The translations under genes and the position numbers were made by a program. Of a stretch of 64,000 bases of DNA, positions 1 through 20,418 are shown in pieces; the first letter of the stretch is position 1; every line of letters starts with the position of its first letter. Source of the stretch: an uncultured Gemmatimonadaceae bacterium (GTDB taxonomy: Bacteria > Gemmatimonadota > Gemmatimonadetes > Gemmatimonadales > Gemmatimonadaceae); NCBI GenBank assembly GCA_963781585.1, contig CAWAGQ010000013.1, positions 448,001 through 512,000 of the forward strand, given 5' to 3'. The notes under the pieces are model-generated. The model did not search any database. It had not been told where the DNA came from and was given only the letters and a program-made list of their open reading frames with translations.

Positions 1-137
1 TTACCAGACGGCCCCATGCCGCCGGATTCGCCACGGCGTAGATTAGCGCCACTACGACCACCGCGCGGCGATGACATGCGAAGGCGCGTCCTCGCCGTGG
101 CCCACGCAGGCCCGTGTCGTTCCCGAGGAGCAATCTC

Positions 138-3401: not shown

Positions 3402-4469
3402 TCAGGGAACCATCACCGCTCGCCTGAGCAGCCCGCCATGGTGTGCCAGGTCGAACACCTCGTTGATCCGCTCGAGCGGATGCCGCTCGACGTACGGCTT
3501 CACCCGGATACGGCCCGCCAGAATCCACTCGAGGATCTCCGCGTAGAGCAGGGGATCGGCACCCCAGTTCCCCCGCGCCTCGGCGTCGTAGGCCATCAGG
3601 TTCGACAGGCAGATCTCGATGCGGTCCATGGTATAGCCAACGACCGCCAGCGCGGCGCCGAATCCAATGAGTCCGAACGCGGTTTCCTGCCCGGCGCGCG
3701 TGCCAGACGTCTCGAAGATCTTCCACAGGAAGGGCGGGGCATCGAGGGAGTCGGCCGCGCTTCGCACCTGCTTCCGAATGTCCCTGGGGGCGACGCCGGC
3801 CACGTCGAGCGCGACGCCGGCGCCGGCGCCGCGGGCCTGCTCCAGCTTCCGCTTGTCCACGTCCAGCGCGATGACCTTGGCCCCTGAGGCGACCGCGATC
3901 TGCACACCATGCACGCCGATTCCTCCGGCGCCGATGAACACGGCGAGGTCGCCGGCGGAAAGGCCTGAGCGCTTGACCGCCTGGAACGGTGTCGAGACCG
4001 CATCGGAGACGACCGCCAGCTCCCACAGCTCGTGGGTGGCGAGCAACTCGTCAGGCACGGGACAGAGAAAGCGCGCCGGCACCACCACATGCGACTGGTA
4101 CCCTCCGTGGCGGTCATTCCCCGGCATCACCTGACTTCGGCAGATCGTGCGTCGTCCGGCCCGGCACAGCGCGCACTCGCCGCACGGCAGCACGGCCGGC
4201 ACGATGACGGCCCGTCCGACCAGCCGCGCATCGATGCCAGGACCCACGTTGTGGACGTATCCGCTGATCTCGTGTCCCAGCACCAGCGGCAGCGTGCCCC
4301 GCGTCTTGACGCCATGATGGAGAAACGACAGGTCGGTGTGGCAGACGCCGCACCCCGACACCTGGACCACCGCCTCGCCCGGCCCGGGCGCCTGCGGTTC
4401 GAGCGCACGGCGCTCGAACGGTGCCCCGGGTGCCGTCATCAGCCATGCGTCCCACGTGGCTTCGGCCAT
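3402..4469 (-). CDS. had: 6-hydroxycyclohex-1-ene-1-carbonyl-CoA dehydrogenase (Zn-dependent MDR)
   Basis: 'CGVCHTDL', 'LGHEISG', 'PCGECALC...C', 'GNWG' motifs; last gene of the bcr operon; start ATG 4469 with GAGGAG RBS. Confidence 0.85.
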   Translation of the reverse strand: MAEATWDAWLMTAPGAPFERRALEPQAPGPGEAVVQVSGCGVCHTDLSFLHHGVKTRGTLPLVLGHEISGYVHNVGPGIDARLVGRAVIVPAVLPCGECALCRAGRRTICRSQVMPGNDRHGGYQSHVVVPARFLCPVPDELLATHELWELAVVSDAVSTPFQAVKRSGLSAGDLAVFIGAGGIGVHGVQIAVASGAKVIALDVDKRKLEQARGAGAGVALDVAGVAPRDIRKQVRSAADSLDAPPFLWKIFETSGTRAGQETAFGLIGFGAALAVVGYTMDRIEICLSNLMAYDAEARGNWGADPLLYAEILEWILAGRIRVKPYVERHPLERINEVFDLAHHGGLLRRAVMVP

Positions 4470-4486
4470 CGCCGTCTGGACTCCTC

Positions 4487-6388
4487 TCAGGACTCCGTGG
4501 TGTTGATGACGACCGTGTCGTCGCCGAATATGAAGCTTCCGCACTCGTGGCATCGATCGAGGGTACGATCCGCCCCCGCAAAACAGCGCCGGTCGTCAGG
4601 CGCCAGCCGCATCACCTTCCGCAGGAAGCGGCAGTCGCAGTCACCGCTGGGCTCGTAGACCGCGTCCAGGTACGACCCGGCGTCTTCCAGCACATTGCGC
4701 ACCCGGACCTTGAGCGACGGCGTGAGCTCCTGCTCGTCGATCGAGAGCTCCTTGCTGATCACCGCGAAGGCCTGGATGCGCTCGTACTTCACGGGATGCT
4801 CCCGATTGAAGGCGAGGATCGTCGCCCGCAACGAGTCCCGCACGACGCGCTCGGCGCGCGCCCGGTCGTCGCCGAACTCTTCGCCGATCCGGAAGAAGTC
4901 CGGGAAGATCAGGGCCGCGAGAAAGTCCCTTCCGCCGCCGGTCACGATGACGTGGCGGATGTACGAGTTCATCCCGGCAAGCCGGTTCTCGATGCCCGTC
5001 GGCACCACCTTCTCCGCGTTCAGCATCTTGAACACGCGATCCTTCCGCGCGACCAGCTTGAGTCCGGCGCCTGCCAGCTCGCCCAGGTCGCCGGTGTGAA
5101 ACCATCCGTCGCCGGGCAGCGCCGCGGCGGTTGCCGCCGGATTCCGGAAGTAACCGCGCATGACGTTAGGCCCCTGCACCAGGATCTCGCCGTCTTCGGC
5201 AATCCGGACCCGTACCCCCGGGATGGGATACCCGACCATGCCCGGAACCGTACGGGGCTCGCCGAGATCCGTGAGCGTGCAGCACGGCGATGTCTCCGTG
5301 AGCCCCCAGCCCTCGAGTACCGGGATGCGCCGCCCGGCGAAGAAGCCGGAGACATTTGCCGGTAGCGGCGCGGCGGCCGTGAAAACGAAACGCAACCCGG
5401 GGTGGAAGATCCGCGCCTCCTGCTCGGGGTGCGCCTGCGCGTACGCAACCAGTTGCTGGTAGACCTTCGGAACGCTGAAGTAGATCGTGGGCCGCACCTC
5501 GAGCCACTGATCCAGCAGCCGCTCGAAGTTCTTGCCGAGCGACTGGTCGATGTGCAGTGCGGCGCCGCTGTACAGCGCACCGTATTTCTCGAAGATGCCG
5601 CCGAAACTGTGGTGCCAGGGGAGGTACGACAGGAACCGGTCGTCGGGAGTGACCGACCAGATGGCGGACAGGGCACGCTGCTGCGAGAGAATGTTGTCGT
5701 GGGTGAGCAGCACGCCCTTGAGCGGACCGCTGGTGCCTGACGTGTACATCATCAGGCTCGCCGTCGCCGGGTCGACGTTGGCGGCGTCGTCGAGGAAAGC
5801 GGTCAGGCGCTGCGGATCGTGTTCCGGCACTGCGAAGTCATGAAGGACGGCTCCGAACGTGGTGGGCTCCGAGCGCCTTCCGCGGTGCCGGCCCGCACCG
5901 GTACCTGACACCACGCCGTCGAACACGACGACCGCGCGCACGTGGTCGGGCACGCCGATACGAAGGAGATGATCGGGAGTCGCGACGATGAGCACCGTTG
6001 GTTCGGCATGCTCCACTAGTGCGCGCGCCTGCTCGGCCGGATAGCCGGTAAAGATGGGGACGTAGATCGCGCCAAGGCACATCGTCGCCATCTCCGCCAC
6101 CAGCATCTCGCCTCGATTTGGCGACAGCAGCACCACCCGGTCGCCCATCCGCACCCCGGACGAGGCGAGAAACGTGCCGAACGCGGCAACGTCCCGTGCG
6201 AACTGATGCCAGGTCGTCGCGCGGAACGCACCGTCGTGTCGTTCGGCGAACGCGGTTCGCCCGTCCAGTGCTGCCACGTTGCGCGCCAGCATCGCACCGA
6301 CGGATTCCGGTTCGCCCAGCGGGGCGAGGCGCGAGAAGATCACGTCGCCCTCGCGCGCGGCGGCCCGGGAGGAGCCTCCGTCAGTCAT
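4487..6388 (-). CDS. AMP-forming acyl-CoA synthetase (long-chain ligase-like) with Cys-rich C-terminal extension
   Basis: 'YTSGTSG.LKG', 'EGWGLTET', 'GWFHTGDLG', 'ELTPSLK' motifs; start approximate (6388/6394/6406). Confidence 0.8.
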   Translation of the reverse strand: MTDGGSSRAAAREGDVIFSRLAPLGEPESVGAMLARNVAALDGRTAFAERHDGAFRATTWHQFARDVAAFGTFLASSGVRMGDRVVLLSPNRGEMLVAEMATMCLGAIYVPIFTGYPAEQARALVEHAEPTVLIVATPDHLLRIGVPDHVRAVVVFDGVVSGTGAGRHRGRRSEPTTFGAVLHDFAVPEHDPQRLTAFLDDAANVDPATASLMMYTSGTSGPLKGVLLTHDNILSQQRALSAIWSVTPDDRFLSYLPWHHSFGGIFEKYGALYSGAALHIDQSLGKNFERLLDQWLEVRPTIYFSVPKVYQQLVAYAQAHPEQEARIFHPGLRFVFTAAAPLPANVSGFFAGRRIPVLEGWGLTETSPCCTLTDLGEPRTVPGMVGYPIPGVRVRIAEDGEILVQGPNVMRGYFRNPAATAAALPGDGWFHTGDLGELAGAGLKLVARKDRVFKMLNAEKVVPTGIENRLAGMNSYIRHVIVTGGGRDFLAALIFPDFFRIGEEFGDDRARAERVVRDSLRATILAFNREHPVKYERIQAFAVISKELSIDEQELTPSLKVRVRNVLEDAGSYLDAVYEPSGDCDCRFLRKVMRLAPDDRRCFAGADRTLDRCHECGSFIFGDDTVVINTTES

Positions 6389-7223
6389 CGCCATCGTCCT
6401 TGCCATGGCGCGCGAGGGCAGCCTCACGAGTCGCGCCATCCGGGCCCACCGATACCGCGCCCTCGCGCGCGGCCAGTGCCGCGCCGAACGCGCCCATCTC
6501 CTGGGGATGTGGCGGGACGACGACTTCGCAGCGAAGCTCAGACGACAGCAGCGCGACCATGGTCGGATGAAACGCCACCACGCCGCCGGTGGCGACGACC
6601 TGCCCGTGAAAGACATCCATGGCTATCACCCGCTTCACCAGCGAGCGGTAGGCGGCCATTGCCAGGTCGGCCGGCCGGTTCCCGCTGCGAATGAGCGCCA
6701 GCAACTCGGTGCCGGCGAATACGGTGCAGAAGCTCGACAGCTCGAGCGCGTTGGAGGCCTGCTTCGCGAGAGCGTCCATCTCCTCCACGCGGATTCCGAG
6801 TCGAAGCGCGATCTCGTCGAGAAAGCTTCCGGTGCCGGCGGCACACTTGCGGTTCATGCGGTGCGACACGCGTTGCCCGGCGGCGTCGAACCGGATCACC
6901 TTGGCGTCCTGTCCGCCGATATCGATGACCGTCGCCGGACCGGGGATATAGAACGCAGCGCCGCGGCCGTGGCAGTCCAGCTCGGTGCGCGAGCCGTGGG
7001 CGAATGTCACCGCCTGACGCCCGAATCCCGTCGCCCAGATCGCGCGCACCTGGCCGGCCTCACACCCCGCGTCGGCCAGCGCGTTGGCGTAGACCCGCTC
7101 GGCGGCCGCGGCCAGATCTGCACCCGAGCGCACCACCGACATCCCGAGCACCCGCGCGCCGGCGTCGATGATGACCGCCTTCGTGTTCCACGAGCCGCTG
7201 TCGATGCCGGCGTAGAGCGTCAT
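6381..7223 (-). CDS. 2-hydroxyacyl-CoA dehydratase activase (ASKHA ATPase, HgdC/FldI/BcrAD family), canonical copy
   Basis: 'GIDSGS..TKA', 'ATGFGR', 'DIGGQDAK', 'KCAAGTGSFL', 'CTVFA', 'GAFGAAL'. Confidence 0.88.
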   Translation of the reverse strand: MTLYAGIDSGSWNTKAVIIDAGARVLGMSVVRSGADLAAAAERVYANALADAGCEAGQVRAIWATGFGRQAVTFAHGSRTELDCHGRGAAFYIPGPATVIDIGGQDAKVIRFDAAGQRVSHRMNRKCAAGTGSFLDEIALRLGIRVEEMDALAKQASNALELSSFCTVFAGTELLALIRSGNRPADLAMAAYRSLVKRVIAMDVFHGQVVATGGVVAFHPTMVALLSSELRCEVVVPPHPQEMGAFGAALAAREGAVSVGPDGATREAALARHGKDDGDD

Positions 7224-8512: not shown

Positions 8513-9336
8513 TGTACCGTTCCCGCGGCGACAGGGTGTTCGACGGTCTGCGGCAGTGGTCGCGCGGCCATTATCGCGGCGCCCAGGGCTCCTGTGAAGA
8601 TCGGTTCCGGCACTGCCTTGACGGTCATGCCGGTGAGCGACTCCAGCGCGCGGAGCACGCCAGGGAAGTACTCGGCCACGCCGCCGCACACCACGATGGG
8701 ATCCTGGAACCCGCCGATCTCGAGGACCCGCTCCGCGATCGAGTGCATGCAGCCGAACGCCACCTCCTCGCGGGTCGCGCCGTCGCGGAGCCGCTCGAGC
8801 ACGTCGGAGGCGGAGAACACCGAACAGTAGCTGCTCACCTGGGCGGGTCGCTCAGCGGCCGCGGCCAGCTCCTGAAGCCGGAGGGCGCTCACGTCCAGGT
8901 GCCGCGCGGTGAACATGAGGAAACTCCCCACGCCAAGCGCACAGCGGCGAACGCCCCGGGCCTCCAGCTGGTGTCCATCCGCGCTCACCTGGATCACGCG
9001 CGGGTCGCGCCCTCCGATGTTCACCAGCGTCATGGGTTCGCGCAGATGGTGGAATGCTCCCAGGGCGTGGCACGCCGTCTCCGATGCGGTGAGGGTTGCG
9101 TGCGGCACGCAGTTCATGGCGAACCCGGTGGCCCCGACGCCGACGAGGTCGTCCTCGCGCCGCTGCGCGTCGTCGAGCGCGGCCATCAGCACTTCGTAGA
9201 TGCAGGCCTGGAAGTAGCCGCGCGTGGGCAGCACCGCCCGCCCGAGCACACGCCCGTCCTCACTGGCCACCAGCGCCTTCACGCATTCGGTCCCCGCGTC
9301 CACGCCCGCGGCGATCCTCGGTTCAGCCGGTTGCAT
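8509..9336 (-). CDS. Second dehydratase activase, degenerate ATP-binding motifs, both Fe-S Cys retained
   Basis: 'GVDAGTECVKA', 'NIGGRDPR', 'RCALGVGSFL', 'YCSVFS', 'GALGAA'. Confidence 0.8.
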   Translation of the reverse strand: MQPAEPRIAAGVDAGTECVKALVASEDGRVLGRAVLPTRGYFQACIYEVLMAALDDAQRREDDLVGVGATGFAMNCVPHATLTASETACHALGAFHHLREPMTLVNIGGRDPRVIQVSADGHQLEARGVRRCALGVGSFLMFTARHLDVSALRLQELAAAAERPAQVSSYCSVFSASDVLERLRDGATREEVAFGCMHSIAERVLEIGGFQDPIVVCGGVAEYFPGVLRALESLTGMTVKAVPEPIFTGALGAAIMAARPLPQTVEHPVAAGTVQ

Positions 9337-11644
9337 AACCCGTATCTCCCGCCAGCGCCCGTTCCGACGCGCCGGCGTGTTGCGTGCGTTGTTCGACGAA
9401 ATCCGACAGCAGCGCCTGCACGCGTTCGAGCGAGAACAGGCGCGGGTCGTGGGAATCGGCTTCGATCACCAGCGCCGGGATCCCCGTGAGGCGTTGGGCG
9501 CGGACGGCGAGGCCGTACCGCACGTGGCTGGCTTCGGCGGTGGTGCGGCAGTCGTGATAGACTGCCGCGTCGACGCCGAAGCGTTCGAACTCTCGCGCGA
9601 GGTAGGCCGTCTTGTACTGCTCCGAGCGGTTGCCGAACACGCCGGTGTATGCCTCCGCCATGCTCGCGATCGGGTCGTGCGGACCGAGGCCCTTCAGCGC
9701 AAACACACTGCAGAATGTGGAGGCGACGACGGCGGTTCCCGTCCCGGCGAACAGTCCCGACAGGGCGCGCAGCGCACCCCAGATAGGCGGTCCGTCCCAG
9801 TAGACGCGATGAAATTCGCTGGGGACGGCCGCAACACCCTGAGCGACGCGCTGTTCGATTTCGGCCTTGAGCTCGCGGTAGTAGGCGACGGCCTCGGGCG
9901 TGCCGCGCAGCAGGAGCATCGGCGCGAGGTGGGTCACGGCGTCGAAGAAGGTCAGCGGTGCGGGGGTCGCCTGCCCCAGCTCGAGAATCTCGTTCCACAG
10001 CGCCGACGCCTGGGCGCTCCACTCCACGATCTCGGCCAGCCGGTCGGAGTCGAGCGGTCGTCCACTGACTCTGCGGAGTTGAATCGACAGGCGCGTCCAC
10101 TGGTCGATTGCGGCGTCGAGGTCGATCCGCTCGAGGTCGTGGAGCGCGGTCGGTGGATGCAGTCCGACGACCGGCACGCCATAGTGAGCGCCGTAATACT
10201 CGAACCAGCGACGCAGCTCGTGTCCGGTGTTGGTGCTGTACACCGCGACGTCGGGGCGGGGCGGTCCCTTGATGCCGTGGGCGGTCACGAGCGGGCTGCT
10301 CCCCTCCAGCAACGCGCCGACGTCGGCGCGCATGGCGGCGCTGGCGAACTGCGAGAACCCCTCGGCCGTGGCCCGGGCGATGAGCGGCGCCGCCTGACGA
10401 GTGGCACCGATCAGGGCGGCGTGGTTCTCCGGAAAGTACGGCAGCATGTCGAGGGCCCGAATGATCTCCACCGGGCCGAGCCCCGAGCAGGCCGCCACTT
10501 TCCGGTCGGGGTCATCCGACGCGGCCTCGACATCGAGATAGTACGCGTGGATCAGCTCCTTCAGGCGGCGGGTGGATTCGAGCCGCGGTCCGACGAACGG
10601 CAGACCGGCGTCGGCCCCTCTCGCTGTCGGCCGGGACGGCGCCCTCGGCCGGGCACGGTCGCCGCCATGCGCGGCGCCCGCGTCGAGCCCCAATCGTCGC
10701 GCGAGCTCCTGCTTGTTGAGAAACTTCTGGCGCTCACGGGAGTGGATGAAGTGGACGATCGCCGCGTTATGCGGCGCCGTCAGCCCCAGCCGGCGCGCCT
10801 CGGCCACGATCGCGCCGTTGAGCGCGTCCACTTCCGTGCGCGTGCCGCGGGACAGGTCCTGCCACATCGACGGCCGGTTCTTCGCCAGCGCTTTCAGCGA
10901 TCCGATGATCGGACGGAACGGATCCTCCTCGTCGACGATCGGGACGCCTCGCGCCCGCATCACGGCGATGATCTCCATGGCGAGATCGCGCATGAACGCG
11001 AGCAGCTCGTCGTCGCCGAGGATTTCGCGGCACGTCAGCCCGGTGAGCGCCGAGGTCGGGTTCACCACCGCGTTGTGCAGGAGCTTCTGCCAGACGGCGT
11101 GATCGACGTTGTCGACCACGGTCGTCTCGAGCCCGGCCCGCCGGAACATCGCGCCGATGGCCTCGATCTCGGGCGTGACGGTGCCGGCCATGGGCGCGAT
11201 CTGGACCGGCTTGATCCCGGCGCGGTAGTGCAGGCGGCTCGGACCGGCGTGCTGGATGCTGTGGTACGTGATGCCGCACAACACATGGTCCGGGGCCACG
11301 TGGCGCGCGATGGCCTCCACGTTGCCGATGCCGTTCTGCATCGAGAGGAACCAGGTGCCCGGATGAACGACCCCCATCACCGCCTGCACCGCGTCCTCGG
11401 TCTGATAGGTCTTGGTCGCGATGAAGACCAGGTCGAACGGCGCCGCACCCTCGACGGTGGTCACCGCCCGCACCGGATAGCAGCTCTCCTCCTCGCCCAC
11501 CCGGGTGATCGACAGACCGGATTCGTTCAGGAGCTGCACGCGGGCCTTGTTCACCTCGAGGAGCGTGACGTCCTCGCCATCGCGCGTCAGCAGAGCTCCC
11601 ACCAGCCCGCCCAGGGCGCCGGCACCCACGATCACGATTCGCAT
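9323..11644 (-). CDS. Fusion: ketopantoate reductase (PanE/ApbA) domain + 2-hydroxyacyl-CoA dehydratase-like domain
   Basis: N-half 'GAGALG', 'QNGIG', 'WQKLLHNAVVNP', 'SMWQDL', 'TEVDALNG'. C-half 'FPENHAA', 'WDGPPIWG', 'HDCRT', 'EADSHDPR'. One continuous 773-aa ORF with a Pro/Arg/Ala linker. Confidence 0.85.
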   Translation of the reverse strand: MRIVIVGAGALGGLVGALLTRDGEDVTLLEVNKARVQLLNESGLSITRVGEEESCYPVRAVTTVEGAAPFDLVFIATKTYQTEDAVQAVMGVVHPGTWFLSMQNGIGNVEAIARHVAPDHVLCGITYHSIQHAGPSRLHYRAGIKPVQIAPMAGTVTPEIEAIGAMFRRAGLETTVVDNVDHAVWQKLLHNAVVNPTSALTGLTCREILGDDELLAFMRDLAMEIIAVMRARGVPIVDEEDPFRPIIGSLKALAKNRPSMWQDLSRGTRTEVDALNGAIVAEARRLGLTAPHNAAIVHFIHSRERQKFLNKQELARRLGLDAGAAHGGDRARPRAPSRPTARGADAGLPFVGPRLESTRRLKELIHAYYLDVEAASDDPDRKVAACSGLGPVEIIRALDMLPYFPENHAALIGATRQAAPLIARATAEGFSQFASAAMRADVGALLEGSSPLVTAHGIKGPPRPDVAVYSTNTGHELRRWFEYYGAHYGVPVVGLHPPTALHDLERIDLDAAIDQWTRLSIQLRRVSGRPLDSDRLAEIVEWSAQASALWNEILELGQATPAPLTFFDAVTHLAPMLLLRGTPEAVAYYRELKAEIEQRVAQGVAAVPSEFHRVYWDGPPIWGALRALSGLFAGTGTAVVASTFCSVFALKGLGPHDPIASMAEAYTGVFGNRSEQYKTAYLAREFERFGVDAAVYHDCRTTAEASHVRYGLAVRAQRLTGIPALVIEADSHDPRLFSLERVQALLSDFVEQRTQHAGASERALAGDTGYATG

Positions 11645-11687: not shown

Positions 11688-12461
11688 TCACCGGTTCTTC
11701 CACGCCGGGCGGCGCTTTTCGGTGAACGACGCGATGCCCTCGCGCACGTCCTCGGTCGCCATCAGTTCATCCAGGAAAACGCGTTCGGCCTCGCGCCGCG
11801 CTACCTCGAACGGCCGACCCTGCAGCCGTCGCGCGAGCCGGACGTTCATGCGCATGACGAGCGGGCTCGCGCGCCGCAGGTCGTCAAGCAGGGCGTCGAG
11901 GACGGCGGTCAGGTCCCCGGACGGCGCGACGCGCGAGACGAGCCCCATTGCCTGCATCTCGGCTGCCGAATACGTCCGGCCCGTGCACGTGACCTCGAGT
12001 GCGCGCGCGAGGCCGATTCGGGACGCCAGCCAGGTGACGCCGACCGGCGCGAAGAACCCCAGCCGGATCTCCGGCTGACCAAACGTGGCGCGGTCGCTGG
12101 CCACCAGCACGTCGGCCATGGCGGCCAGCTCGAATCCAGCGCCTAACGCCGCACCATCCACGACCATCACGAGAGGCAGCTCGCTCGCCCCCAGGGTGCC
12201 GAAGAGCGCGCTGAACGCGGCGATCATGCCCGGCGCCTGCCCGGGAGCGTGCTCGCCCACGTCGGCGCCGGCCGAAAAGGCGCGGGCCTCCGAGCTGAGC
12301 GTGATCGCCTTGAGCGTGCGATCGGCCAGGGCGCGCTCGAGGGCGTCGGTCAGGGCCCCCATCATCGCCGCGGTGAGGATGTTGAGCGGTGGTGAGTCCA
12401 GCGTCAGGTGCGCGACGTCCTCACGGACCTCGTACCGTACCAGACTTGCGCGGTCGGTCAT
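11688..12461 (-). CDS. dch: Cyclohexa-1,5-diene-1-carbonyl-CoA hydratase (crotonase fold)
   Basis: 'PPLNIL', 'FSAGADVGEH', 'GAGFEL', 'FGQPEIRLG'; bcr context. Alternative GTG start at 12470. Confidence 0.72.
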   Translation of the reverse strand: MTDRASLVRYEVREDVAHLTLDSPPLNILTAAMMGALTDALERALADRTLKAITLSSEARAFSAGADVGEHAPGQAPGMIAAFSALFGTLGASELPLVMVVDGAALGAGFELAAMADVLVASDRATFGQPEIRLGFFAPVGVTWLASRIGLARALEVTCTGRTYSAAEMQAMGLVSRVAPSGDLTAVLDALLDDLRRASPLVMRMNVRLARRLQGRPFEVARREAERVFLDELMATEDVREGIASFTEKRRPAWKNR

Positions 12462-12477
12462 CGTCGTCACGGTCTCC

Positions 12478-13227
12478 TCACATGCACTGGCCGCCGTCCA
12501 CCCGGATCACTTCACCCGTCACGTGACGGGCGCGATCCGAGCAGAGGAAGACCACCATCTGCGCGATATCCTCGGGGTCAGCGATGCGGCCGAGTGGGGA
12601 CTCGCGGATTGCGCCGTCGAGCACGCCGCGCGGCAGCGCGGCCGCCATGTCGGTGTGGACCATGCCCGGCGCCACGCAGTTCACGTTGACGCCGAACGCT
12701 CCCAGTTCGCGGGCGAGCGAGCGGGTGAACGCCATCACTCCCCCTTTCGACGCCGCGTAGTTCGACTGCCCGAACTTTCCGCGCAGCCCGTTGATCGACG
12801 AGATGGTCACGATCTTGCCACGCTGCTGGCCACGAAAGGGCGGTACGACCGCGCGGCAGTAGGTGAAGCATCCCTTCAGGTTCACGTCGAGTACGTCGTC
12901 CCACGCTTCCTCGGTCATTTTCCAGACCACGGCATCGCGCGTGATGCCGGCGTTGCAGACGAGGATGTCGAGACGCCCCAGCTCGCGGATGGTCGCGGCC
13001 ACGCTGTTCTCCGCCGCTTCCATGCTCGTGACGTCGGCGCCGAGCGCCACCGCCCGGCGGCCCGAGTGGCGCAGCTCGCCCGCAATCGACTCGGCGCCGG
13101 CGAGAGCGCCCAGGTCCACGAGCGCCACATCGCAGCCTTCGCGCGCGAATTCGCGCGCGATCGCTGCGCCGATGCCGCGTCCGGCGCCCGTGACCAGCGC
13201 CACCTGTCCCGCCATCCCGAGATCCAT
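12478..13227 (-). CDS. Short-chain dehydrogenase/reductase (FabG/BzdZ-like)
   Basis: 'TGAGRGIG', 'NAGITRD', 'YAASK', 'VDGG'. Confidence 0.85.
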   Translation of the reverse strand: MDLGMAGQVALVTGAGRGIGAAIAREFAREGCDVALVDLGALAGAESIAGELRHSGRRAVALGADVTSMEAAENSVAATIRELGRLDILVCNAGITRDAVVWKMTEEAWDDVLDVNLKGCFTYCRAVVPPFRGQQRGKIVTISSINGLRGKFGQSNYAASKGGVMAFTRSLARELGAFGVNVNCVAPGMVHTDMAAALPRGVLDGAIRESPLGRIADPEDIAQMVVFLCSDRARHVTGEVIRVDGGQCM

Positions 13228-13235
13228 CCGATGTC

Positions 13236-14210
13236 CTAGCCTGTCCGGCCCGCGCCATTCAGCGCCGCGCCGCAACTCCCGCAGAACGTGAAGTCGGCGG
13301 GAAGCCCCGTCGCGCCGCAGGACTCGCACGTCGTGGCGTATGGTCCCCACAGGAATTCGCTGCTGGCCCCCGACGCCGCCCGCTGGCGCAGCCCCGCGAA
13401 GTCGACCTTCCGCTTCTCGACGAACGCGCGCATCCCCTCGTACGGCTCCAGCGTGGTGAAGTGCGTGGAGAGCCAGTCACGCGCGTGCCCGATGGTGGCG
13501 TTCCAGGCGGACTCCTTCCAGTAGTTCACCTGCTGCTTGGTGTAGCGCGTGCACTCGGGGAACTTCTCCAGCGCCTGCTGCGCCAGCCCCTGCACCTCGT
13601 CATCGAGGCGGACCCGCGGCACCACGCGGTTCACCAGTCCCCACTCCAGGGCCTGACGGGCGGGGATCCGCGGGTTCAGGAAGAGCATCTCGCGCGCGCG
13701 CCGGTCGCCCACGTGAATCGACAGCCACTGCGTCGCTCCACCCGCGGCCACGCTGCCGACGCTCGATCCGACCTGCCCCAGGTACGTGTCGTCCGCCATC
13801 ACCGCCAGGTCGCACGCCAGCTGCGATTCGTTCCCGCCGCCCACCGCGATGCCGTTGAGCCGGGCGATGGTGATCTTCCCGCTGCGGAGGATGCTCTCGA
13901 TGTAGCGGCTGAACAGGCCCATGTACTTCCAGTAGTCGCGGGGGCGCTTGGTGTAGACGGCGGCGTACTCCTTCACGTCGCCGCCGGTGCAGAACGCCTT
14001 GTCGCCCGCGCCGGTGTACACGATGACCCCCACCGCGTCGTCGTTCGAGGCATCCTCGAAGGCGACGATCAGCTCCCGCAGCGTGTCGGTGGTGTACGCG
14101 TTGTACGACTCGGGGCGGTTGATGGTGATGCGCGCCACCATGTCGCGCTTTTCATAGAGAATGTCCTTGAACCCGAAGCAGGTCGCGTCCTTCGAAGGGA
14201 AATACTCCAT
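13236..14210 (-). CDS. oah: 6-oxocyclohex-1-ene-1-carbonyl-CoA hydrolase (ring-opening), with C-terminal CxxC..CxxC
   Basis: 'YNAYTT', 'TGAGDKAFCTGGDVKEYA', 'VGGGNESQLACD', 'FPECTRYTK', ends 'CESCG...FCGSCG'; bcr context. Confidence 0.78.
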   Translation of the reverse strand: MEYFPSKDATCFGFKDILYEKRDMVARITINRPESYNAYTTDTLRELIVAFEDASNDDAVGVIVYTGAGDKAFCTGGDVKEYAAVYTKRPRDYWKYMGLFSRYIESILRSGKITIARLNGIAVGGGNESQLACDLAVMADDTYLGQVGSSVGSVAAGGATQWLSIHVGDRRAREMLFLNPRIPARQALEWGLVNRVVPRVRLDDEVQGLAQQALEKFPECTRYTKQQVNYWKESAWNATIGHARDWLSTHFTTLEPYEGMRAFVEKRKVDFAGLRQRAASGASSEFLWGPYATTCESCGATGLPADFTFCGSCGAALNGAGRTG

Positions 14211-14285
14211 CCGTCGATACCTCAGTCGCAGTTGGTCACCGATGAGCGGTATGGTCGATCGTCTGATTGTTCGTCACGCTCCGCG

Positions 14286-15491
14286 TCATTCCACCTTCAC
14301 CACGATTGCCGCTGCGCTGTCGCCGGCCGCGCATCCGGTGAACAGTCCATAGCCGCCGCCCAGGAGCGTGAGGTCCTCGACCAATTCCATGATGGCACGG
14401 AGCCCCGTGGGTCCCTGCGGGTGTCCCCACACCAGCGAGCTGCCGTGGCGATTCATCATCTCCGGGTCGAGGCCGAGCTCCCGCGACAGGTACACATCGT
14501 TGACCGCGAACGGATTGTGCGTCGTCACACTCGTCAGGTCGCCGGCGCTGATTCCGGCACGCTCCAGCGCCTGACGCGCGGCCGGCGCCACCGCCATCGG
14601 CATGAATCCCTTCCTGACCCGTGCCTGTCCGTACGACAGCAGCCGGATCCCCACCGCGCCGTCGCGCGAGAGCGCCTGTGCGCGGTCCCGGCTCGCGGCG
14701 AGGATCATGGCCGCGCTGCCGTCGGCCGGGTGCGTCTGCGTGCCGAAGGTCACCGTGCCCCCGTCGATGACGGGGCGCAGTCCCTGCAGCCCCTGCGCCG
14801 TGGTCGGAAAGACGCCCTCATCGCCGGTGACGGTCGCCAGAACCTTCCTGCCGCGCGCGTCCTTCACCTCGACCGGCCGCACCAGGAACCGCGACAGGAA
14901 CGCGCCGTCGTCCGCGGTGGCGAGTTGGTACTGGCGGAAGCGCAGCAACGCCATTTCCTCCTGTGCCGCGCGGCTGATGCCTGCCTCACGCGCCACGTTC
15001 TCCGCCGTTTCCACCATCGAGTTCCTGGCGTATGGATCGTGGCCGAAGCTGTCGAGCACCCAGTTCTCGGCATCGCCCGTGCCGCCTGGGCCGGCGGGAT
15101 TCGGATAGTAGACGTGTGGTCCATTGCTCGTCCGATCGGCCGACGCAGCGAGGTAGACGGTGGCGCTCCCCGATTCCAGCTCCTGGGCGCCCTGCACCAG
15201 GGTCCGGACCGATGTCGCGCACGCCTGGTTGATGGTCGGCCCGGTCACGTGGCACAGTCCCGCGAGACCGGCAAACCACGGCGCCCCGTAGAACGACCCC
15301 TTGCTCGGCACGGTCGTGCCGAGACACATGCCGTCGAACGCGGAGACGTCGACGCCGCGCTCGGACAGCGCGCGTTTCGTGACATCGGCGGCGAAGGGAA
15401 TCGGCGCCAGCGGCGCGAAGCTCCCCTGCCATGCGCAGAACGGCGTCGACCAGTAGCCGCCGTACGGAATCCAGGTGTTCGTGAATTGCAT
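14286..15491 (-). CDS. Thiolase family protein
   Basis: 'QACATS' nucleophile, 'HNPF' in place of NEAF, 'GHPQGPTG', 'CAAGD'. Confidence 0.85.
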   Translation of the reverse strand: MQFTNTWIPYGGYWSTPFCAWQGSFAPLAPIPFAADVTKRALSERGVDVSAFDGMCLGTTVPSKGSFYGAPWFAGLAGLCHVTGPTINQACATSVRTLVQGAQELESGSATVYLAASADRTSNGPHVYYPNPAGPGGTGDAENWVLDSFGHDPYARNSMVETAENVAREAGISRAAQEEMALLRFRQYQLATADDGAFLSRFLVRPVEVKDARGRKVLATVTGDEGVFPTTAQGLQGLRPVIDGGTVTFGTQTHPADGSAAMILAASRDRAQALSRDGAVGIRLLSYGQARVRKGFMPMAVAPAARQALERAGISAGDLTSVTTHNPFAVNDVYLSRELGLDPEMMNRHGSSLVWGHPQGPTGLRAIMELVEDLTLLGGGYGLFTGCAAGDSAAAIVVKVE

Positions 15492-15549
15492 CGTCGTCCT
15501 CACACAGGGCGGGGGAGGCCGGCGGCCGACCCCGCGTCTTGGCTCGTGC

Positions 15550-16206
15550 TCATTGCCCGCGCCCGTCGTGGCGCAGCCCGTTGAGCACGAGGTCCAGCAT
15601 TTCCTCGCCGACCTGTTCCACCGGTCCATGGCGGGCCGGATCGTACCACATGAAGATCCAGTTCAGCATACCGAAGATGAACAGCGTGGCGTGGCGGCTC
15701 TCCCGCGATGCCCCGGCAGCGTTAGGCGGACCGTCCTTCACCTCCGCGACCACGTCCGTCATCAGCCGGTAGTAGCGCCGGCGCAGCGACTGGATGGTGT
15801 GGTAGGGCTCGCCCGTCAGCGATTCCAGCTCGTACGTGCACGCCTTGAGCTCGTTGCGATGGTGCGAGAAGAACCCGAGGTGTCCGATCAGCAGCCGTCG
15901 GAACCGCTCCTCCGGCGTGCCGGGCTGCTCGGCGACTTCCTCCTGCGCCTGCAGCAGTGAGCCGAAGGTCCGGTACTGGAGCTGATAGAGCAGGTCCTCC
16001 TTGCTGGCGAAATAATGGTACAGGCCCGCCAGGCTCACCCCCACCGCCTGGCTCACGTCGCGCATCGAGGTCGCCTCGAATCCCTTCTCCGCGATCAGCG
16101 CCGCCGCCCGGGCCAGCAGGTGATCGACCTTCTGCCGGGTCGTCGCCCGTGGGCGCTGGTGGCGTGCCGTGGCGGCGGGCATGGCGGGATCACGCGGGAT
16201 CGTCAT
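15550..16206 (-). CDS. TetR-family regulator, PaaR/KstR2-like (acyl-CoA sensing subgroup)
   Basis: HTH 'GFEATSMRDV...LYHYFASKEDLL'; C-terminal 'IFGMLNWIFMWY'; ATGA overlap with the upstream gene. Confidence 0.85.
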   Translation of the reverse strand: MTIPRDPAMPAATARHQRPRATTRQKVDHLLARAAALIAEKGFEATSMRDVSQAVGVSLAGLYHYFASKEDLLYQLQYRTFGSLLQAQEEVAEQPGTPEERFRRLLIGHLGFFSHHRNELKACTYELESLTGEPYHTIQSLRRRYYRLMTDVVAEVKDGPPNAAGASRESRHATLFIFGMLNWIFMWYDPARHGPVEQVGEEMLDLVLNGLRHDGRGQ

Positions 16207-19061
16207 GATGGCACCTCGTGCGCTAGCGCCAGCGGCGGCTGCTGGGCCGGTGATGGGCGGTCCTTGAGTCCCCGCAGAATCTTCTCCGGGGTGATCGGCA
16301 ACTCGGTCACGCGCACGCCGCACGCGTCGTACACGGCGTTGGCAATCGCGCCCAGCACCGGCAACAGTGAACCCTCCCCGATCTCCTTGGCACCGAACGG
16401 ACCGTGCGGCTCGTAGCTGTCCACCGCTGCGGTGCGAATGTCCGGAGTGTCGCAGATCGTCGGGATCAGGTAGTCATGCAGATTCGGGTTGGCGATCTCC
16501 CCGTTGGCCCCCACCACCGTGTCCTCGAACAGCGTTTCGCCGAGACCCATCACGATCGCACCCTCGACCTGTCCGTGGAACGTCACCGGGTTGATGACCG
16601 TGCCCGCGTCGCTGAAGTCGGTCACGCGGTCGACGGTCACGAAGCCGGTCTCGAGATCGACGGTCACCTCCGCCACCACCGTCGAGAAGGAGTACGCCGG
16701 CGAGGTCCCGACCGCGCTGCCCTTGAAATCCCCGCCCAGGCTCTGTGGCGGGCGGTACCATCCGGTGCCGACCACCGGTCCGGCGCGGCTGAACGCAAGC
16801 CGTGCCGCCGCGGCCCACTCGATGCCCATGGCCGGGTAGTCGCGCACGAAAATCCGCCCGGCGCGTGCGTCCAGTGCCCCGGCGTCGCACCCCAGTTCAC
16901 GCGCCGCCACCGCGAGCACTTGCTGCTTCACGCTCTGTGCGGCCATCCGGACCGCGTTGCCGCCCATCAACGTGAGGCGGCTCGAGTAGGCGCCCAGGTC
17001 GAGCGTGCTCGACACCGTGTCGCACTCCACCAGCCAGATCCACTCGTAAGGCACCCCCAGTTCCTCGGCGGCGATCTGCACCATCACCGTGTCCGACCCC
17101 TGGCCGATCTCGGCCGCCGCGATGTGAAGCGAGACGCCGGTGCCGTCTTCGTGCACCCGGATCATGGCGTTGGAGTGCGGAAAATCCGAGCGATAGATCG
17201 GATAGCCGGCACCGGAGACAAATCCTCCGCATCCCACGCCGATCCCCCTGCCACGCGCGAGCCGCCCTCGCTTCGTCCGCCACTCGGTTTCCTGGCGCGC
17301 GCGCCGCAGCGTCTGGCCGAACTCGCACGACGAAATGTCGAGCGCGTTGCAGGTGCGCGTGTTCGGTTCCATCGCGTTCTTCAGCCGCATCTCGATCGGA
17401 TCGATGCCGAGATCCTCGGCGATCATGTCGAGCAGCGACTCGAACGCGAAGCGTGGCTGCGGCGCCCCGTGGCCGCGGAACGCACCCGACGCAGGGAGAT
17501 TGGTGTAGACGCGCAGGCCGTCGTAGCGATAATGCGGAATCTTGTACAGGGTCGGGACCATCGAGCCGGCGTAGTACGCGGTGATCACGCCGAACGACGT
17601 GTACGCGCCGCCGTCGAGCACCACGCGCTGCTGTACCGCGGTGATGGTGCCATCCCGTTTCACGCCGATCCGCAGGTCGATGGTCTGCTTGTGACGCCCG
17701 CGGAAGTGCCGGAACATCTCCTCGCGCGAGTATTCCATCAGTACCGGCCGACCCGTCATCCTCGCCAGAATCGCCGCGCAGAAGTCCAGCGGCGTCGCCT
17801 CCGCCTTGGCGCCGAATCCACCGCCCACCGCCGGCCGGATCACGCGGATGTTCCCCATCGGGATGCCCAGCGTGCGGGACAACGACCGGTGCAGGTAGTG
17901 GGGTGTCTGCGTCGATGCCCAGATCGTGAGGCGTCCCGACGGATCCCATTGTGCCAGCGCCGCATGCGGCTCCATCGGCGTCTGGTACGGGCGATTGCCG
18001 ATGAATCGCTGCTCGCGGATGTGCTCGGCGGCAGCGAACCCTCGCTCGATGTCGCCGAAGTGCCACTCGACGCGCGTGTTGATGTTACCGGCATACCGGG
18101 GATTCTCGGGATGGATGAGCGGAGCGCCGGGCGCCATGGCCGATTCGGCGTCGAAGACGGCTGGAAGCGGCTCGTACTCCACCTCGATCAGCCGCAGCGC
18201 CCGCTCAGCCGTCTCCTCGTCGACCGCGGCCACCGCCGCCACCTCGTCGCCCACGTAACGCACCCGCTCCCTGGCGAGAATCTGCTCGTCCTCGCGCGCG
18301 GGGCTCACACCGTACCACGTATCGGGCACGTCGGCGCCGGTAATCACCGCGAGCACACCGGGTAGCGCACGCGCCTTCGAGACATCGATCCGCTTGAGAA
18401 GTCCGTGCGGAATCGGACTGCCAAGAATCTTCCCGTGAATCATCCCTGGCAGCCGGAGGTCAGCCGTGTACTTCGCGCGGCCGGTAACCTTGTCCGGCGC
18501 GTCGTACCGCGTGACTCCGTGACCGACGATCGAGTGGTCGCGTTCCTGATCGCGCTCTCCGCGCCCGTGCGGCCGCGCATCCAGCGGAACGTCGCGATAC
18601 TCCTTCCACCCCTCCACCGCGCTGAGCACGCGCGGATACGTCGCACAGCGACAGAGGTTGCCACTGAGCGCCTCGCGAATCTCCCCAGTCGAGGGATCCG
18701 GATTGCTGTCGACGAGGGCTTTCGCCGCCATCAGCATGCCCGGTGTGCAATAGCCGCACTGCAGCGCCCCGTGCTTCACGAACGCCTTCTGCAGCGGATG
18801 CAACTCGCCGCCCCGTGCCATCCCTTCAATCGTCGTGATCGACCTTCCCGACGCCGCGGCAGCCGGTACCAGGCACGAGGTGACGGGCGCACCATCCATC
18901 AGCACGGTACAGGCACCGCAATCGCCGGTGCCGCACGCCTTCTTGGTCCCCGTGAGGTCGAGCAAGTCGCGCAACACCGCCAGCAGGGTGGTGTCCGGCT
19001 TCACGGCAAGCGCGTGCTCCTCGCCGTTCACCGTTAGGCGGACGAGCATCTCGTCGCTCAT
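16203..19061 (-). CDS. hcrC-hcrA: 4-hydroxybenzoyl-CoA reductase-like molybdoenzyme, fused [2Fe-2S] (gamma) and Mo-cofactor (alpha) subunits
   Basis: N-terminal 'CGTGDCGACT', 'QCGYCTPG', 'CRC'; then 'GGGFGAKAE', 'AFRGHG', 'GPFGAKEIGEG' (RGHG and KE as in HcrA); inside the bcr operon. Confidence 0.75.
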   Translation of the reverse strand: MSDEMLVRLTVNGEEHALAVKPDTTLLAVLRDLLDLTGTKKACGTGDCGACTVLMDGAPVTSCLVPAAAASGRSITTIEGMARGGELHPLQKAFVKHGALQCGYCTPGMLMAAKALVDSNPDPSTGEIREALSGNLCRCATYPRVLSAVEGWKEYRDVPLDARPHGRGERDQERDHSIVGHGVTRYDAPDKVTGRAKYTADLRLPGMIHGKILGSPIPHGLLKRIDVSKARALPGVLAVITGADVPDTWYGVSPAREDEQILARERVRYVGDEVAAVAAVDEETAERALRLIEVEYEPLPAVFDAESAMAPGAPLIHPENPRYAGNINTRVEWHFGDIERGFAAAEHIREQRFIGNRPYQTPMEPHAALAQWDPSGRLTIWASTQTPHYLHRSLSRTLGIPMGNIRVIRPAVGGGFGAKAEATPLDFCAAILARMTGRPVLMEYSREEMFRHFRGRHKQTIDLRIGVKRDGTITAVQQRVVLDGGAYTSFGVITAYYAGSMVPTLYKIPHYRYDGLRVYTNLPASGAFRGHGAPQPRFAFESLLDMIAEDLGIDPIEMRLKNAMEPNTRTCNALDISSCEFGQTLRRARQETEWRTKRGRLARGRGIGVGCGGFVSGAGYPIYRSDFPHSNAMIRVHEDGTGVSLHIAAAEIGQGSDTVMVQIAAEELGVPYEWIWLVECDTVSSTLDLGAYSSRLTLMGGNAVRMAAQSVKQQVLAVAARELGCDAGALDARAGRIFVRDYPAMGIEWAAAARLAFSRAGPVVGTGWYRPPQSLGGDFKGSAVGTSPAYSFSTVVAEVTVDLETGFVTVDRVTDFSDAGTVINPVTFHGQVEGAIVMGLGETLFEDTVVGANGEIANPNLHDYLIPTICDTPDIRTAAVDSYEPHGPFGAKEIGEGSLLPVLGAIANAVYDACGVRVTELPITPEKILRGLKDRPSPAQQPPLALAHEVPS

Positions 19062-19936: not shown

Positions 19937-20418
19937 TCCGTCGCCCTCCACTGGGTCCGCACCGGCATTTCGAGCACCAGCCGCGGAACCGGCGCGAAGC
20001 CGGACCGGGCGAAGAACCCCATCAGCTCGAGCTCGTCCCAGGCCACCTCCGTGCGCAGTCGCTCAATGCGCAGCGCGACGAGGTTGAGCATGAGCTGCTC
20101 GAGCAATGCCGCGCCGATGCCACGCCGCACGAACGAGCGATCGACCAGCACCGTGTCGAGGATCGCCACCGGTTCCGGCTGGCCGAACTCGCCGTAGTGC
20201 ACCGATGCGAGCAGCGCGCCAACGAGCGTGCCGTCCACCTCGGCGCCCAGCGATATGTTCACGTCGGTATCATCGAGGGCCCGCCGGACCTTCCCCTGGT
20301 ACCAGGTCTGACGGCTCCGGCCGCTGATCTCGAGGTCCATCTTCACGAGACGCGGGCAGTCCTCGAGCCGGAGCGTCCGGATCGAGGGTTCGGCGCCTAG
20401 TTCGACGATGCGGTCCAT
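19933..20418 (-). CDS. GNAT acetyltransferase, BadL-like single domain
   Basis: 'YGEFG', 'RRGIGAALL', 'LRTEVAW', 'FFARSGF'; lies between bcrD and the hcr genes. Confidence 0.75.
   Translation of the reverse strand: MDRIVELGAEPSIRTLRLEDCPRLVKMDLEISGRSRQTWYQGKVRRALDDTDVNISLGAEVDGTLVGALLASVHYGEFGQPEPVAILDTVLVDRSFVRRGIGAALLEQLMLNLVALRIERLRTEVAWDELELMGFFARSGFAPVPRLVLEMPVRTQWRATE

Follow-up and report, generated by a model that had tools for sequence, protein, structure and literature searches.

The DNA analysed here is a stretch of 64,000 nucleotides (the window) from contig CAWAGQ010000013.1 of an uncultured Gemmatimonadaceae bacterium (positions 448,001 to 512,000). On its reverse strand lies a gene for a fusion protein, in which a reductase domain of the ketopantoate reductase (KPR; ApbA/PanE) family is followed by a linker and an HGD-D domain, here called alpha'. 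A neighbouring HGD-D gene encodes alpha, a related protein with three cysteines at the positions of known [4Fe-4S] cluster ligands; in alpha' all three are gone. The two HGD-D genes are interleaved with two genes for BcrAD/HgdC-type ATPases (ATPase1 and ATPase2), and the four lie in an island of genes of the benzoyl-coenzyme A (benzoyl-CoA) pathway. Coordinates are collected in Table 1.

For assignment of the fusion protein, a combination of Pfam, NCBIfam and PDB matches was used. Pfam matched ApbA at residues 3-152, ApbA_C at residues 179-303 and HGD-D at residues 391-751. Scores against HGD-D (PF06050) were 156.8 bits for the fusion and 194.1 bits for alpha, so that at a gathering cut-off of 28.4 bits both are members. 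The first-pass annotation, made from the letters of the window, had named the N-terminal domain a ketopantoate reductase. As a family assignment this stood: the TIGR00745 apbA_panE subfamily model gave 254.7 bits (cut-off 141.35), and solved 2-dehydropantoate 2-reductases matched the domain with E values down to 1.3e-35. The identity with PanE itself did not, as no PanE equivalog model exceeded its cut-off, the best score being 181.4 bits against 500 (NF005092) and 252 (NF005091). Judged by these models, the name is a family label and does not denote PanE proper.

The reductase domain appears to have a complete active site. Lys187 (in WQKL) and Glu271 (in TEVD) align to the Lys and Glu of the 2-dehydropantoate 2-reductase 5hws, and both, like Asn104, are invariant, each being found in 122 of 122 fusion homologues; the earlier statement that the Lys and the Glu are intact therefore holds. 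Across fused and free PanE-family forms, the GxGxxG motif, Lys78, Asn104, Lys187, Asn191, Ser259, Asp263 and Glu271 (window numbering) are invariant. From the literature on the Escherichia coli enzyme we take Lys187 and Glu271 to be the catalytic pair, and the Asn, Ser and Asp residues presumably bind the substrate. In Rossmann folds, an acidic residue after strand 2 goes with NAD rather than NADP; strand 2 of the KPR domain is followed by Glu30 (or Asp), which suggests an NAD(H)-linked enzyme. The KPR family takes in D-2-hydroxyacid dehydrogenases, according to the part of bioRxiv 10.1101/2024.01.05.573888 cited here. As a separate observation, a 460-aa protein (P0200) joins a PanE-family domain to a 4HBT thioesterase domain, another link between KPR reductases and the metabolism of CoA esters.

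The C-terminal domain had been reported to match the neighbouring subunit motif by motif, and this was borne out: alpha' and alpha share 43% identity over 412 residues with 2 gaps (E 6e-112). Solved matches of both proteins were alpha-type only (HadB alpha, 3o3m_A; MbdO, 9g87_A; BzdO, 8s02_A), and the NCBIfam HGD-D models matched by both were HadB, BcrB, BzdO and double-cubane. None of the beta-type models HadC, BcrC and BzdN matched either protein at E <= 0.001, in agreement with the proposal that two alpha-type copies, rather than an alpha/beta pair, are present. The best solved match was HadB alpha in each case (alpha E 3.2e-45, alpha' E 1.8e-29); against matches of the BcrB/BzdO kind, alpha reached E 1.2e-26 and 2.9e-20. 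Neither protein approaches an equivalog: alpha and the fusion scored 182.5 and 140.2 bits with the HadB model (NF052455, cut-off 750), 124 and 127.7 bits with BcrB (TIGR02260, cut-off 486.55), and 74.4 and 51.5 bits with BzdO (TIGR03191, cut-off 448.6).

The ligands of the catalytic [4Fe-4S] cluster of BzdO are Cys95, Cys128 and Cys380, and coordination in HadB is described as alike (PMC11971306, in the part cited). In HMMER alignments, Cys100 (EICSY), Cys138 (NQCRD) and Cys366 (RTCPN) of alpha fall on the ligand cysteines of HadB, MbdO and BzdO, and in alpha' the same columns hold Ser435, Gly474 and Thr702. The loss of three cysteines seen in the first-pass annotation is thus confirmed; the first of them had been read as replaced by Ala, and the residue in the column is Ser435 or the adjacent Ala, a trivial difference. 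Alignment of 122 homologues of the fusion showed the loss to be conserved (Table 1). Among alpha' domains from related loci, 0 of 18 had Cys at any ligand position; all three were present in 86 of 89 alpha proteins. A wider alpha-type alignment had 57 rows: alpha and alpha' of the window, plus 55 sequences that each represent a cluster at 50% identity. Four rows with matches shorter than 350 aa had been left out. All three ligand cysteines were kept in 52 of these rows, the five exceptions being the fusion of the window, two of its family, one Cys/Asp/Cys protein and P0175. The last is an unfused alpha-type HGD-D protein of 413 aa with Gln, Gly and Asn at the ligand positions and no Cys, and may represent a second, independent cluster-less lineage.

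Apart from the ligands, the family scaffold is retained. The FPENHAA motif was found in both copies, as had been noted before, and the Glu of its PEN part aligns with Glu65 of BzdO, the role of which is described in PMC11971306 (in part). Within the 122 fusion homologues, Cys386 is kept in 119, Glu406 in 120, His408 in 121, Cys699 in 103 and Cys645 in 75. In Cys-bearing alpha, the equivalents of Cys386 (a WC motif), the PEN Glu and the His are each present in 89 of 89 sequences, and that of Cys699 in 17 of 89. Because Cys386 is equally invariant in alpha, and an equivalent of Cys699 is seen in 17 of the 89, neither appears to be an obvious substitute for a lost ligand. Altogether, 61 alignment columns are conserved in alpha and alpha', the Glu and His of PENH among them; a further 8 are conserved but differ between the two groups, and two of these are columns of the lost cysteines.

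Neither the fusion nor the cysteine loss is peculiar to this assembly, a question that the first-pass annotation had left to a wider comparison. At least 119 further 90%-identity clusters have the same three-domain make-up (PF06050, PF02558 and PF08546). The best 120 clusters for the fusion are 705-785 aa long, 61-74% identical to it apart from the window's own entry, and labelled Gemmatimonadota and Acidobacteria by source; a 59%-identical copy, likewise lacking the ligand cysteines, occurs in a metagenome-assembled genome (MAG) labelled Pseudomonadota. Pairwise NG86 dN/dS values were 0.085-0.37 for alpha', 0.08-0.29 for alpha and 0.10-0.26 for the reductase domain, with similar values for the ATPases; as the informative pairs have dS of 0.5-1.6, near saturation, the ratios are rough. 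One ATPase1 pair with a truncated locus gave a meaningless value and was left out. Purifying selection acts on this gene as it does on the intact paralogue, and the gene is not decaying, which answers the alternative of selection or decay raised earlier.

The four genes form a compact unit. The start of ATPase2 overlaps the stop of the fusion gene by 14 nt, and alpha is joined to both flanking ATPase genes by ATGA overlaps. ATPase1 and ATPase2 are 33% identical to each other. The nucleotide motifs of ATPase2 are divergent yet conserved (D.GTEC[VI]K and IGGRDP). The two bridging-cluster Cys motifs are kept in both proteins, as would suit an activator in which every monomer gives two Cys to a bridging [4Fe-4S] cluster. 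Eight loci from species-representative genomes were compared, and in 7 of them alpha', ATPase2, alpha and ATPase1 follow one another without interruption; in the genomes compared, the fusion was never without a Cys-bearing alpha and two ATPases. The full-length fusion was found in 15 of 401 Gemmatimonadota genomes, the window's own included; alpha was present in all 15, on the same contig in 14. In IQ-TREE phylogenies, alpha' forms one clade on a long stem (support 99) and the alpha proteins of four-gene systems form another (support 98), the inner branching of which mirrors that of the alpha' clade. ATPase2 is likewise a single clade (21 rows, support 100).

Table 1. Features of the fusion gene, the four-gene unit and the surrounding genes; scores are bits against the cut-off of the model
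Feature	Position in window	Strand	Remarks
Fusion gene	9323..11644	-	Open frame, 773 aa; KPR-family (ApbA/PanE) domain, linker and cluster-less alpha-type HGD-D domain (alpha')
KPR-family reductase domain, residues 1-305	10730..11644	-	GxGxxG, N104, K187, N191, S259, D263, E271
Linker, ~residues 306-355	10580..10729	-	~50 aa, variable, rich in Ala/Arg/Pro/Gly; columns 320-355 poorly conserved and gapped
alpha' HGD-D domain, residues 356-752	9389..10579	-	Family scaffold kept, including E406, H408 and C386; cluster ligands gone
Ser435 codon, column of ligand Cys1 (alpha Cys100)	10340..10342	-	Cys in 0/122 homologues, neighbouring columns included
Gly474 codon, column of ligand Cys2 (alpha Cys138)	10223..10225	-	Gly in 122/122 homologues
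Thr702 codon, column of ligand Cys3 (alpha Cys366)	9539..9541	-	Cys in 9/122 homologues
ATPase2, BcrAD/HgdC-type, 275 aa	8509..9336	-	Both bridging-cluster Cys kept; Pfam, NCBIfam, PDB alignments to MbdQ and HgdC
alpha, Cys-bearing alpha-type HGD-D, 430 aa	7220..8512	-	Cys100, Cys138, Cys366
ATPase1, BcrAD/HgdC-type, 280 aa	6381..7223	-	Canonical DIGGQD.K and KCAAGTG motifs
AMP-forming acyl-CoA ligase, Cys-rich C-terminal tail	4487..6616	-	Directly downstream of ATPase1, position conserved
Had, 6-hydroxycyclohex-1-ene-1-carbonyl-CoA dehydrogenase	3402..4553	-	TIGR03201, 426.9 vs 338.65
Dch-like crotonase	11688-12470	-	Best NCBIfam match under cut-off
SDR	12478-13350	-	Best NCBIfam match under cut-off
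Oah/BadI/MenB-like crotonase	13236-14210	-	Best NCBIfam match under cut-off
Atypical thiolase	14286-15629	-	TIGR01930, 191.8 vs 240.55, under cut-off
TetR regulator	15550-16323	-	Island gene
4-Hydroxybenzoyl-CoA-reductase-like Mo enzyme, fused 2Fe-2S and Mo subunits, 994 aa	16203-19187	-	TIGR03194, 915.7 vs 994.55
FAD subunit of the 4-hydroxybenzoyl-CoA-reductase-like enzyme	19058-19951	-	XdhB best, 199.8
bcrD	20397-21248	-	342.2 vs 312.85
bcrA	21248-22699	-	572.9 vs 578, under cut-off
bcrB	22513-23889	-	676.9 vs 486.55
bcrC in two frames	23787-24488 and 24319-25065	-	With bcrD, bcrA and bcrB, a class I benzoyl-CoA reductase set of Thauera type

The remaining genes of the island were compared with Pfam and NCBIfam models. 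The genes from 11688 to 15629 form a block on the same strand upstream of the fusion; their order, like that of the island from the Mo enzyme to had, is kept in Gemmatimonadota loci. The true start of the ligase gene is uncertain, with Met codons at 6439, 6406, 6394, 6388 and 6292. The source genome has five HGD-D matches, all within the window (alpha, alpha', bcrB and bcrC in two frames), and its sole beta-type gene is the bcrC of the separate bcrCBAD set. BcrB exceeded its cut-off in 19 of the 401 Gemmatimonadota genomes, including all 15 with the fusion, and the fusion was absent from all 382 genomes that have no BcrB. No hint of a substrate came from the PDB matches of ligase and thiolase. 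Among sequencing runs, one soil metagenome was listed, with a small share (0.14) of the sequence words, and no RNA run.

Some further features of the island were recorded. The bcrC profile is matched at positions 2-152 in the open reading frame (ORF) 24319-25065 and at 155-380 in ORF 23787-24488; the frame change, near 24488-24495, may be an assembly frameshift or a broken gene. The FAD subunit at 19058-19951 is weak on the beta model of 4-hydroxybenzoyl-CoA reductase (118.6 bits against 404.55, in two stretches), and the Mo enzyme at 16203-19951 may not be a true 4-hydroxybenzoyl-CoA reductase. A CxxC-x12-CxxC tail closes the Oah/BadI/MenB-like crotonase, and the Cys-rich tail of the ligase has a CxC...C...CxxC pattern. 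In related Gemmatimonadota loci, tblastn matches reach nearly to the C terminus of both proteins, which suggests that the tails are kept; they may be zinc-ribbon-like add-ons. A thiolase 51-54% identical to that of the island stands directly upstream of alpha in unrelated loci (L040-L042, L046, L048, L053, L055 and L096), and the atypical thiolase may be part of the module and not a general beta-oxidation enzyme. Another HGD-D protein of ~435-460 aa, unrelated to the island, is encoded in about 40 of the 401 Gemmatimonadota genomes; its 206-231 bits on BcrB are far under the cut-off. On the forward strand, at 114-3236, the island is flanked by a gene whose large product looks secreted and has PD40/beta-propeller repeats and, at its C terminus, an amidohydrolase domain. 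Further on in the window are oligopeptide transporter genes and genes of the asparaginase family.

Metagenome contigs were scanned with an alignment of alpha relatives, and the 80 loci obtained were mapped by tblastn, Pfam and NCBIfam. In these loci an alpha 45-65% identical to that of the window is widely the sole HGD-D gene besides bcrB and bcrC. Its companions, within operons of the benzoyl-CoA pathway, are a gene of the PanE family and a single BcrAD ATPase, and this three-part module usually stands beside an acyl-CoA ligase and a thiolase. One layout, exemplified by locus L097, is bcrCBAD-ligase-alpha-PanE::ATPase-thiolase-had-oah-dch-fadB, with Had and Oah over their cut-offs; another is bcrAD-(ADP-forming acyl-CoA synthetase)-PanE-had-oah-dch-alpha-ATPase-thiolase. 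In locus L041 (9301-16833) the module is interrupted by genes for a CCG/4Fe-4S protein, a tungsten or molybdenum enzyme of the AFOR family (592 aa) and a PadI-like ferredoxin subunit, and PanE and the ATPase lie ~6 kb downstream of alpha. A PanE-family match was seen in 37 of the 80 loci. Where alpha had 3 kb or more of sequence on each side (25 loci), such a match was seen in 21, and benzoyl-CoA genes in 17.

The reductase is attached to more than one part of this system. PanE forms one ORF with the ATPase in 12 loci, is adjacent but separate in 5, and forms one ORF with alpha' in 8. The PanE::ATPase fusion is very common, and its best 120 clusters are all 591-649 aa long and hold both domains; they are labelled Bacteroidia, Saprospiraceae, Chitinophagaceae, Cytophagales, Ignavibacteriae, Chlorobi and Calditrichaeota, and are mostly annotated as '2-dehydropantoate 2-reductase'. 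In a protein of a Myxococcota MAG (P0123), PanE is fused to an alpha with all three cysteines, the only fusion among its best 120 relatives. In the tree of reductase domains, module PanE, ATPase-fused PanE and the N terminus of P0123 form one clade (support 100). The alpha'-fused PanE domains fall outside it and group with ordinary PanE-family representatives, a set that was taken from the top matches of the window's domain and is biased towards it. The two reductase sets are 20-25% identical to each other. Since alpha'-fused and module PanE fall in different KPR lineages, the reductase was recruited and attached at least twice. The four-gene form is taken to be a derived variant of the widespread three-part module. 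The first-pass annotation had the cluster-less subunit tethering the reductase to the radical enzyme. The fusion is real, but the link is not special to that subunit, as PanE also occurs alone, on the ATPase and once on a Cys-bearing alpha.

Characterised dehydratases are alpha-beta heterodimers with a [4Fe-4S] cluster in each subunit, 12 A apart, and the ATP-energised electron reaches alpha from a homodimeric activase by way of the beta cluster (PMC11574389, in the part cited). In BzdNO, BzdO holds a [4Fe-4S] and BzdN an [8Fe-9S] cluster, the six-Cys double-cubane site of the BzdN-type partner serving as electron relay (PMC11971306, likewise in part). These accounts support the statement of the first-pass annotation that characterised family members carry a cluster in each subunit. 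With HadBC/HadI and the clostridial dehydratases the window system shares HGD-D proteins, the three Cys ligands of alpha, HgdC/HadI-type ATPases with bridging-cluster Cys, and the presence alongside of D-2-hydroxyacid-dehydrogenase-type and CoA-activating enzymes, as in the clostridial pathway (PMC11574389, same part). It differs in that the partner is a second alpha-type copy without a cluster, whereas the beta subunit of HadBC holds a cluster and takes the electron; in that it has two different ATPases instead of one homodimeric activase; in that its dehydrogenase is of the KPR family and fused to the enzyme; and in that a ligase stands where the clostridial pathway has a CoA-transferase. 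Its hosts are Gemmatimonadota and Acidobacteria-labelled MAGs, and its context is a benzoyl-CoA island.

With BcrCBAD, BzdNOPQ and MbdONQP it has in common two HGD-D-type subunits, two different BcrAD-type ATPases and the benzoyl-CoA pathway neighbourhood, but its partner subunit is not BcrC/BzdN-like and lacks the six-Cys site and even the three canonical cysteines. The window also contains, at a distance of 9 kb, a true bcrCBAD set, so the four-gene enzyme is additional to it. The three-part module, found in MAGs labelled Bacteroidota, Ignavibacteriae, Chlorobi and Calditrichaeota, is like the window system in its alpha family, its ligase, thiolase, had, oah, dch, bcr and hcr-like neighbours and its tie to KPR; the window adds the cluster-less second HGD-D gene and a second, divergent ATPase, and its reductase, from another KPR lineage, is fused to alpha' and not to the ATPase. 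From PanE/ApbA and the KPR D-2-hydroxyacid dehydrogenases, which it resembles in fold, family and the conserved GxGxxG/Asn/Lys/Asn/Ser/Asp/Glu set, the reductase domain differs in being fused to a radical-enzyme subunit and in lying in a catabolic island, not with pantothenate genes. A literature search, with most subscription journals outside its reach, found no description of a cluster-less alpha-type partner or of a PanE fusion to this enzyme family. Of two papers that it did bring up, PMC13416013 treats, in the part cited, only a hypothetical phenyllactyl-CoA dehydratase in a benzene degrader, and PMC1924859 an orphan activase in Geobacter. The families and the chemistry are known; what no report within that reach describes is the proposed subunit logic, in which alpha and alpha' share one cluster, the activator of a HadB-like system is heterodimeric and the reductase is built in.

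Based on these comparisons, we propose that the four gene products form a probably heterotetrameric, ATP-dependent iron-sulfur radical enzyme of the 2-hydroxyacyl-CoA dehydratase/benzoyl-CoA reductase superfamily. Alpha' would most likely be the non-catalytic dimer partner of the Cys-bearing alpha, completing both the dimer and the CoA channel and bearing the reductase, and the alpha/alpha' dimer would hold one [4Fe-4S] cluster instead of two. The single alpha gene of the three-part relatives implies, by comparison, a homodimer with two equal clusters. Because characterised relatives route the electron via the cluster of the partner, a one-cluster dimer would need a different electron path. 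ATPase1 and ATPase2 would form an asymmetric activator, as BcrA and BcrD do, with its bridging cluster facing alpha, and the electron would be injected straight into the cluster of alpha.

The N-terminal domain of the fusion is predicted to be an active KPR-family 2-oxoacid/(R)-2-hydroxyacid dehydrogenase. The pathway would then run from a 2-oxoacid to the (R)-2-hydroxyacid (KPR domain), on to the 2-hydroxyacyl-CoA (ligase) and the 2-enoyl-CoA (alpha with the ATPases), and into beta-oxidation. Our leading guess for the substrate is arylpyruvates from phenylalanine and tyrosine, which would reach benzoyl-CoA or 4-hydroxybenzoyl-CoA via aryllactyl-CoA and cinnamoyl-CoA-type intermediates. It is the most economical one in view of the company that the module keeps, namely beta-oxidation, bcr, hcr-like and dch/had/oah genes; 2-oxoglutarate (via glutaconyl-CoA) or other acids may be used instead. 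Taken as a whole, this reading, a scaffold alpha' that carries the reductase in a one-cluster ATP-dependent 2-hydroxyacyl-CoA dehydratase-like enzyme, is given a little over an even chance.

Several observations weigh against it. Alpha' keeps Glu406, His408, Cys386 and mostly Cys699, which is beyond the needs of a pure scaffold. Fusion of a dehydrogenase to an activator that in clostridia is needed only catalytically would be odd, and a high-flux dehydrogenase-activator fusion together with two distinct ATPases would also fit stoichiometric, reductase-like use of ATP. In the eighth of the species-representative genomes (G001) the fusion and ATPase2 adjoin hcr-like genes and had, and alpha (57% identity) and ATPase1 (48%) are on another contig. 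Alpha' does not come out as sister to its partner alpha in the tree: forcing the two together costs 27.5 log-likelihood units (approximately unbiased (AU) test, p 0.043), in a grouping that was named after the tree had been seen and with FastTree and quick IQ-TREE phylogenies that have long branches. A recent duplication of the local alpha thus finds no support in the trees, and alpha' may be a paralogue of long standing, or else a duplicate whose evolution was rapid once the cluster had been lost. Four of the 19 BcrB-bearing Gemmatimonadota genomes are without the module, and in these four no alpha-type protein was found besides BcrB itself; the module was accordingly rejected as an obligatory helper of benzoyl-CoA reductase. 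Co-occurrence of fusion and BcrB is an association and not necessarily a need, because the related genomes are not independent of each other and the island may travel or be passed on as one block. The genomes are without exception MAGs or contigs from metagenomes. The benzoyl-CoA pathway already accounts for the ligase, thiolase, crotonases and dehydrogenases, which indicate no particular 2-oxoacid, and no aminotransferase was seen in the island.

The four proteins could instead be a benzoyl-CoA-reductase-like, ATP-dependent reductase of substituted aryl- or alicyclic-CoA esters rather than a dehydratase. Turnover would then use electrons and ATP, and the KPR domain would reduce a keto group of the product, such as a tautomerised hydroxybenzoyl-CoA. 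Two different ATPases interleaved with two HGD-D genes are the layout of benzoyl-CoA reductases, with matches to MbdP/MbdQ and BcrA/BcrD, dehydratase activases being homodimers (PMC11574389, in part); the position between bcr, dch, had and oah genes and the strict co-occurrence with BcrB in the sampled Gemmatimonadota argue in the same direction, and fusion of PanE to the ATPase in many lineages fits a stoichiometric complex. Alpha, however, scores higher with HadB than with BcrB or BzdO, the PDB E values agree, and the three-part relatives have a single ATPase gene. The invariant KPR residues, which are taken to bind the substrate carboxylate, favour a free 2-oxoacid over a CoA ester. Nor is there a BcrC/BzdN-type double-cubane partner, through which BzdNO relays its electron (PMC11971306, in part). 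We consider a reductase improbable, if still a serious contender. It is a good deal less probable that alpha' binds another metal or ligand through Cys386, Glu406, His408 and mostly Cys699, and so has a role of its own in substrate or CoA-ester binding for the KPR domain, in sensing, or with a mononuclear metal. High retention of these four residues, the invariant Gly474 at the former second Cys, the 61 conserved family columns and a dN/dS as low as that of alpha would suit such a role. Yet Cys386, the Glu and the His are kept as strictly in cluster-bearing alpha and may be structural or shape a shared substrate channel, and Cys699 has an equivalent in few alpha proteins of other systems.

The gene pairs might also be two systems that share an island, with alpha as a homodimer served by ATPase1 and the alpha'-PanE protein doing a non-redox job with ATPase2. 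The separate contigs of G001, the related systems that run with one alpha gene and one ATPase gene, and the branching of alpha' outside the alpha clade are in line with this. But ATPase2 keeps the Cys of an electron-carrying bridging cluster for which alpha' would offer no acceptor; moreover, translation of the four genes is coupled in the window, they lie side by side in 7 of 8 genome loci, alpha' occurs without alpha in 0 of 15 fusion-bearing Gemmatimonadota genomes, and the topologies of alpha' and partner alpha mirror each other, which together make separate systems very unlikely. More doubtful again is a KPR domain acting as electron entry, whereby NAD(P)H would feed the ATPase cluster and ATP would drive electrons to very low potential without ferredoxin. 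PanE is indeed repeatedly fused to electron-injecting parts (to the ATPase in 12 of 80 loci and at least 120 clusters, and here to alpha'), and no ferredoxin gene was noticed among the longer ORFs of the island. Against this, the full set of 2-oxoacid-binding residues is conserved and no domain able to switch from two-electron to one-electron transfer is present; KPR-family enzymes transfer hydride, and are not known to hold a flavin or metal that could split it into single electrons. An assembly artefact or a decaying pseudogene might be suspected in a MAG with 7.19% estimated contamination and with bcrC read in two frames in the same window. For the fusion and its Cys loss this was ruled out, its likelihood being next to nil, by 773 open codons, at least 119 other clusters from several sources, occurrence in 15 of 401 genomes, dN/dS of 0.085-0.37, and invariant catalytic and scaffold residues.

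In the accepted picture, the cluster of the partner subunit takes the ATP-energised electron and hands it on to the active-site cluster. A natural, conserved enzyme with a cluster-less partner would be a ready test of the need for that relay and of the docking site of the activator, and, should the scaffold reading of alpha' be true, a second, relaying or storing cluster would be dispensable. That the system is a new class of ATP-driven ketyl-radical enzyme, with two alpha-type subunits, a single [4Fe-4S] cluster and a built-in 2-oxoacid reductase attached at least twice, and at the same time a missing arylpyruvate entry route into the benzoyl-CoA pathway, is a tentative suggestion with clearly less than an even chance. 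If true, it would place such a route in several phyla not known for anaerobic aromatic degradation. Repeated fusions of a KPR-family reductase, with three parts of the system, draw attention to a module, so far uncharacterised, in the benzoyl-CoA operons of Bacteroidota-like, Gemmatimonadota, Acidobacteria-labelled and other MAGs. Knowledge of its substrate would correct hundreds of entries now called '2-dehydropantoate 2-reductase', and would fill a gap in how anaerobic and facultative bacteria of soil and sediment feed the benzoyl-CoA pathway.

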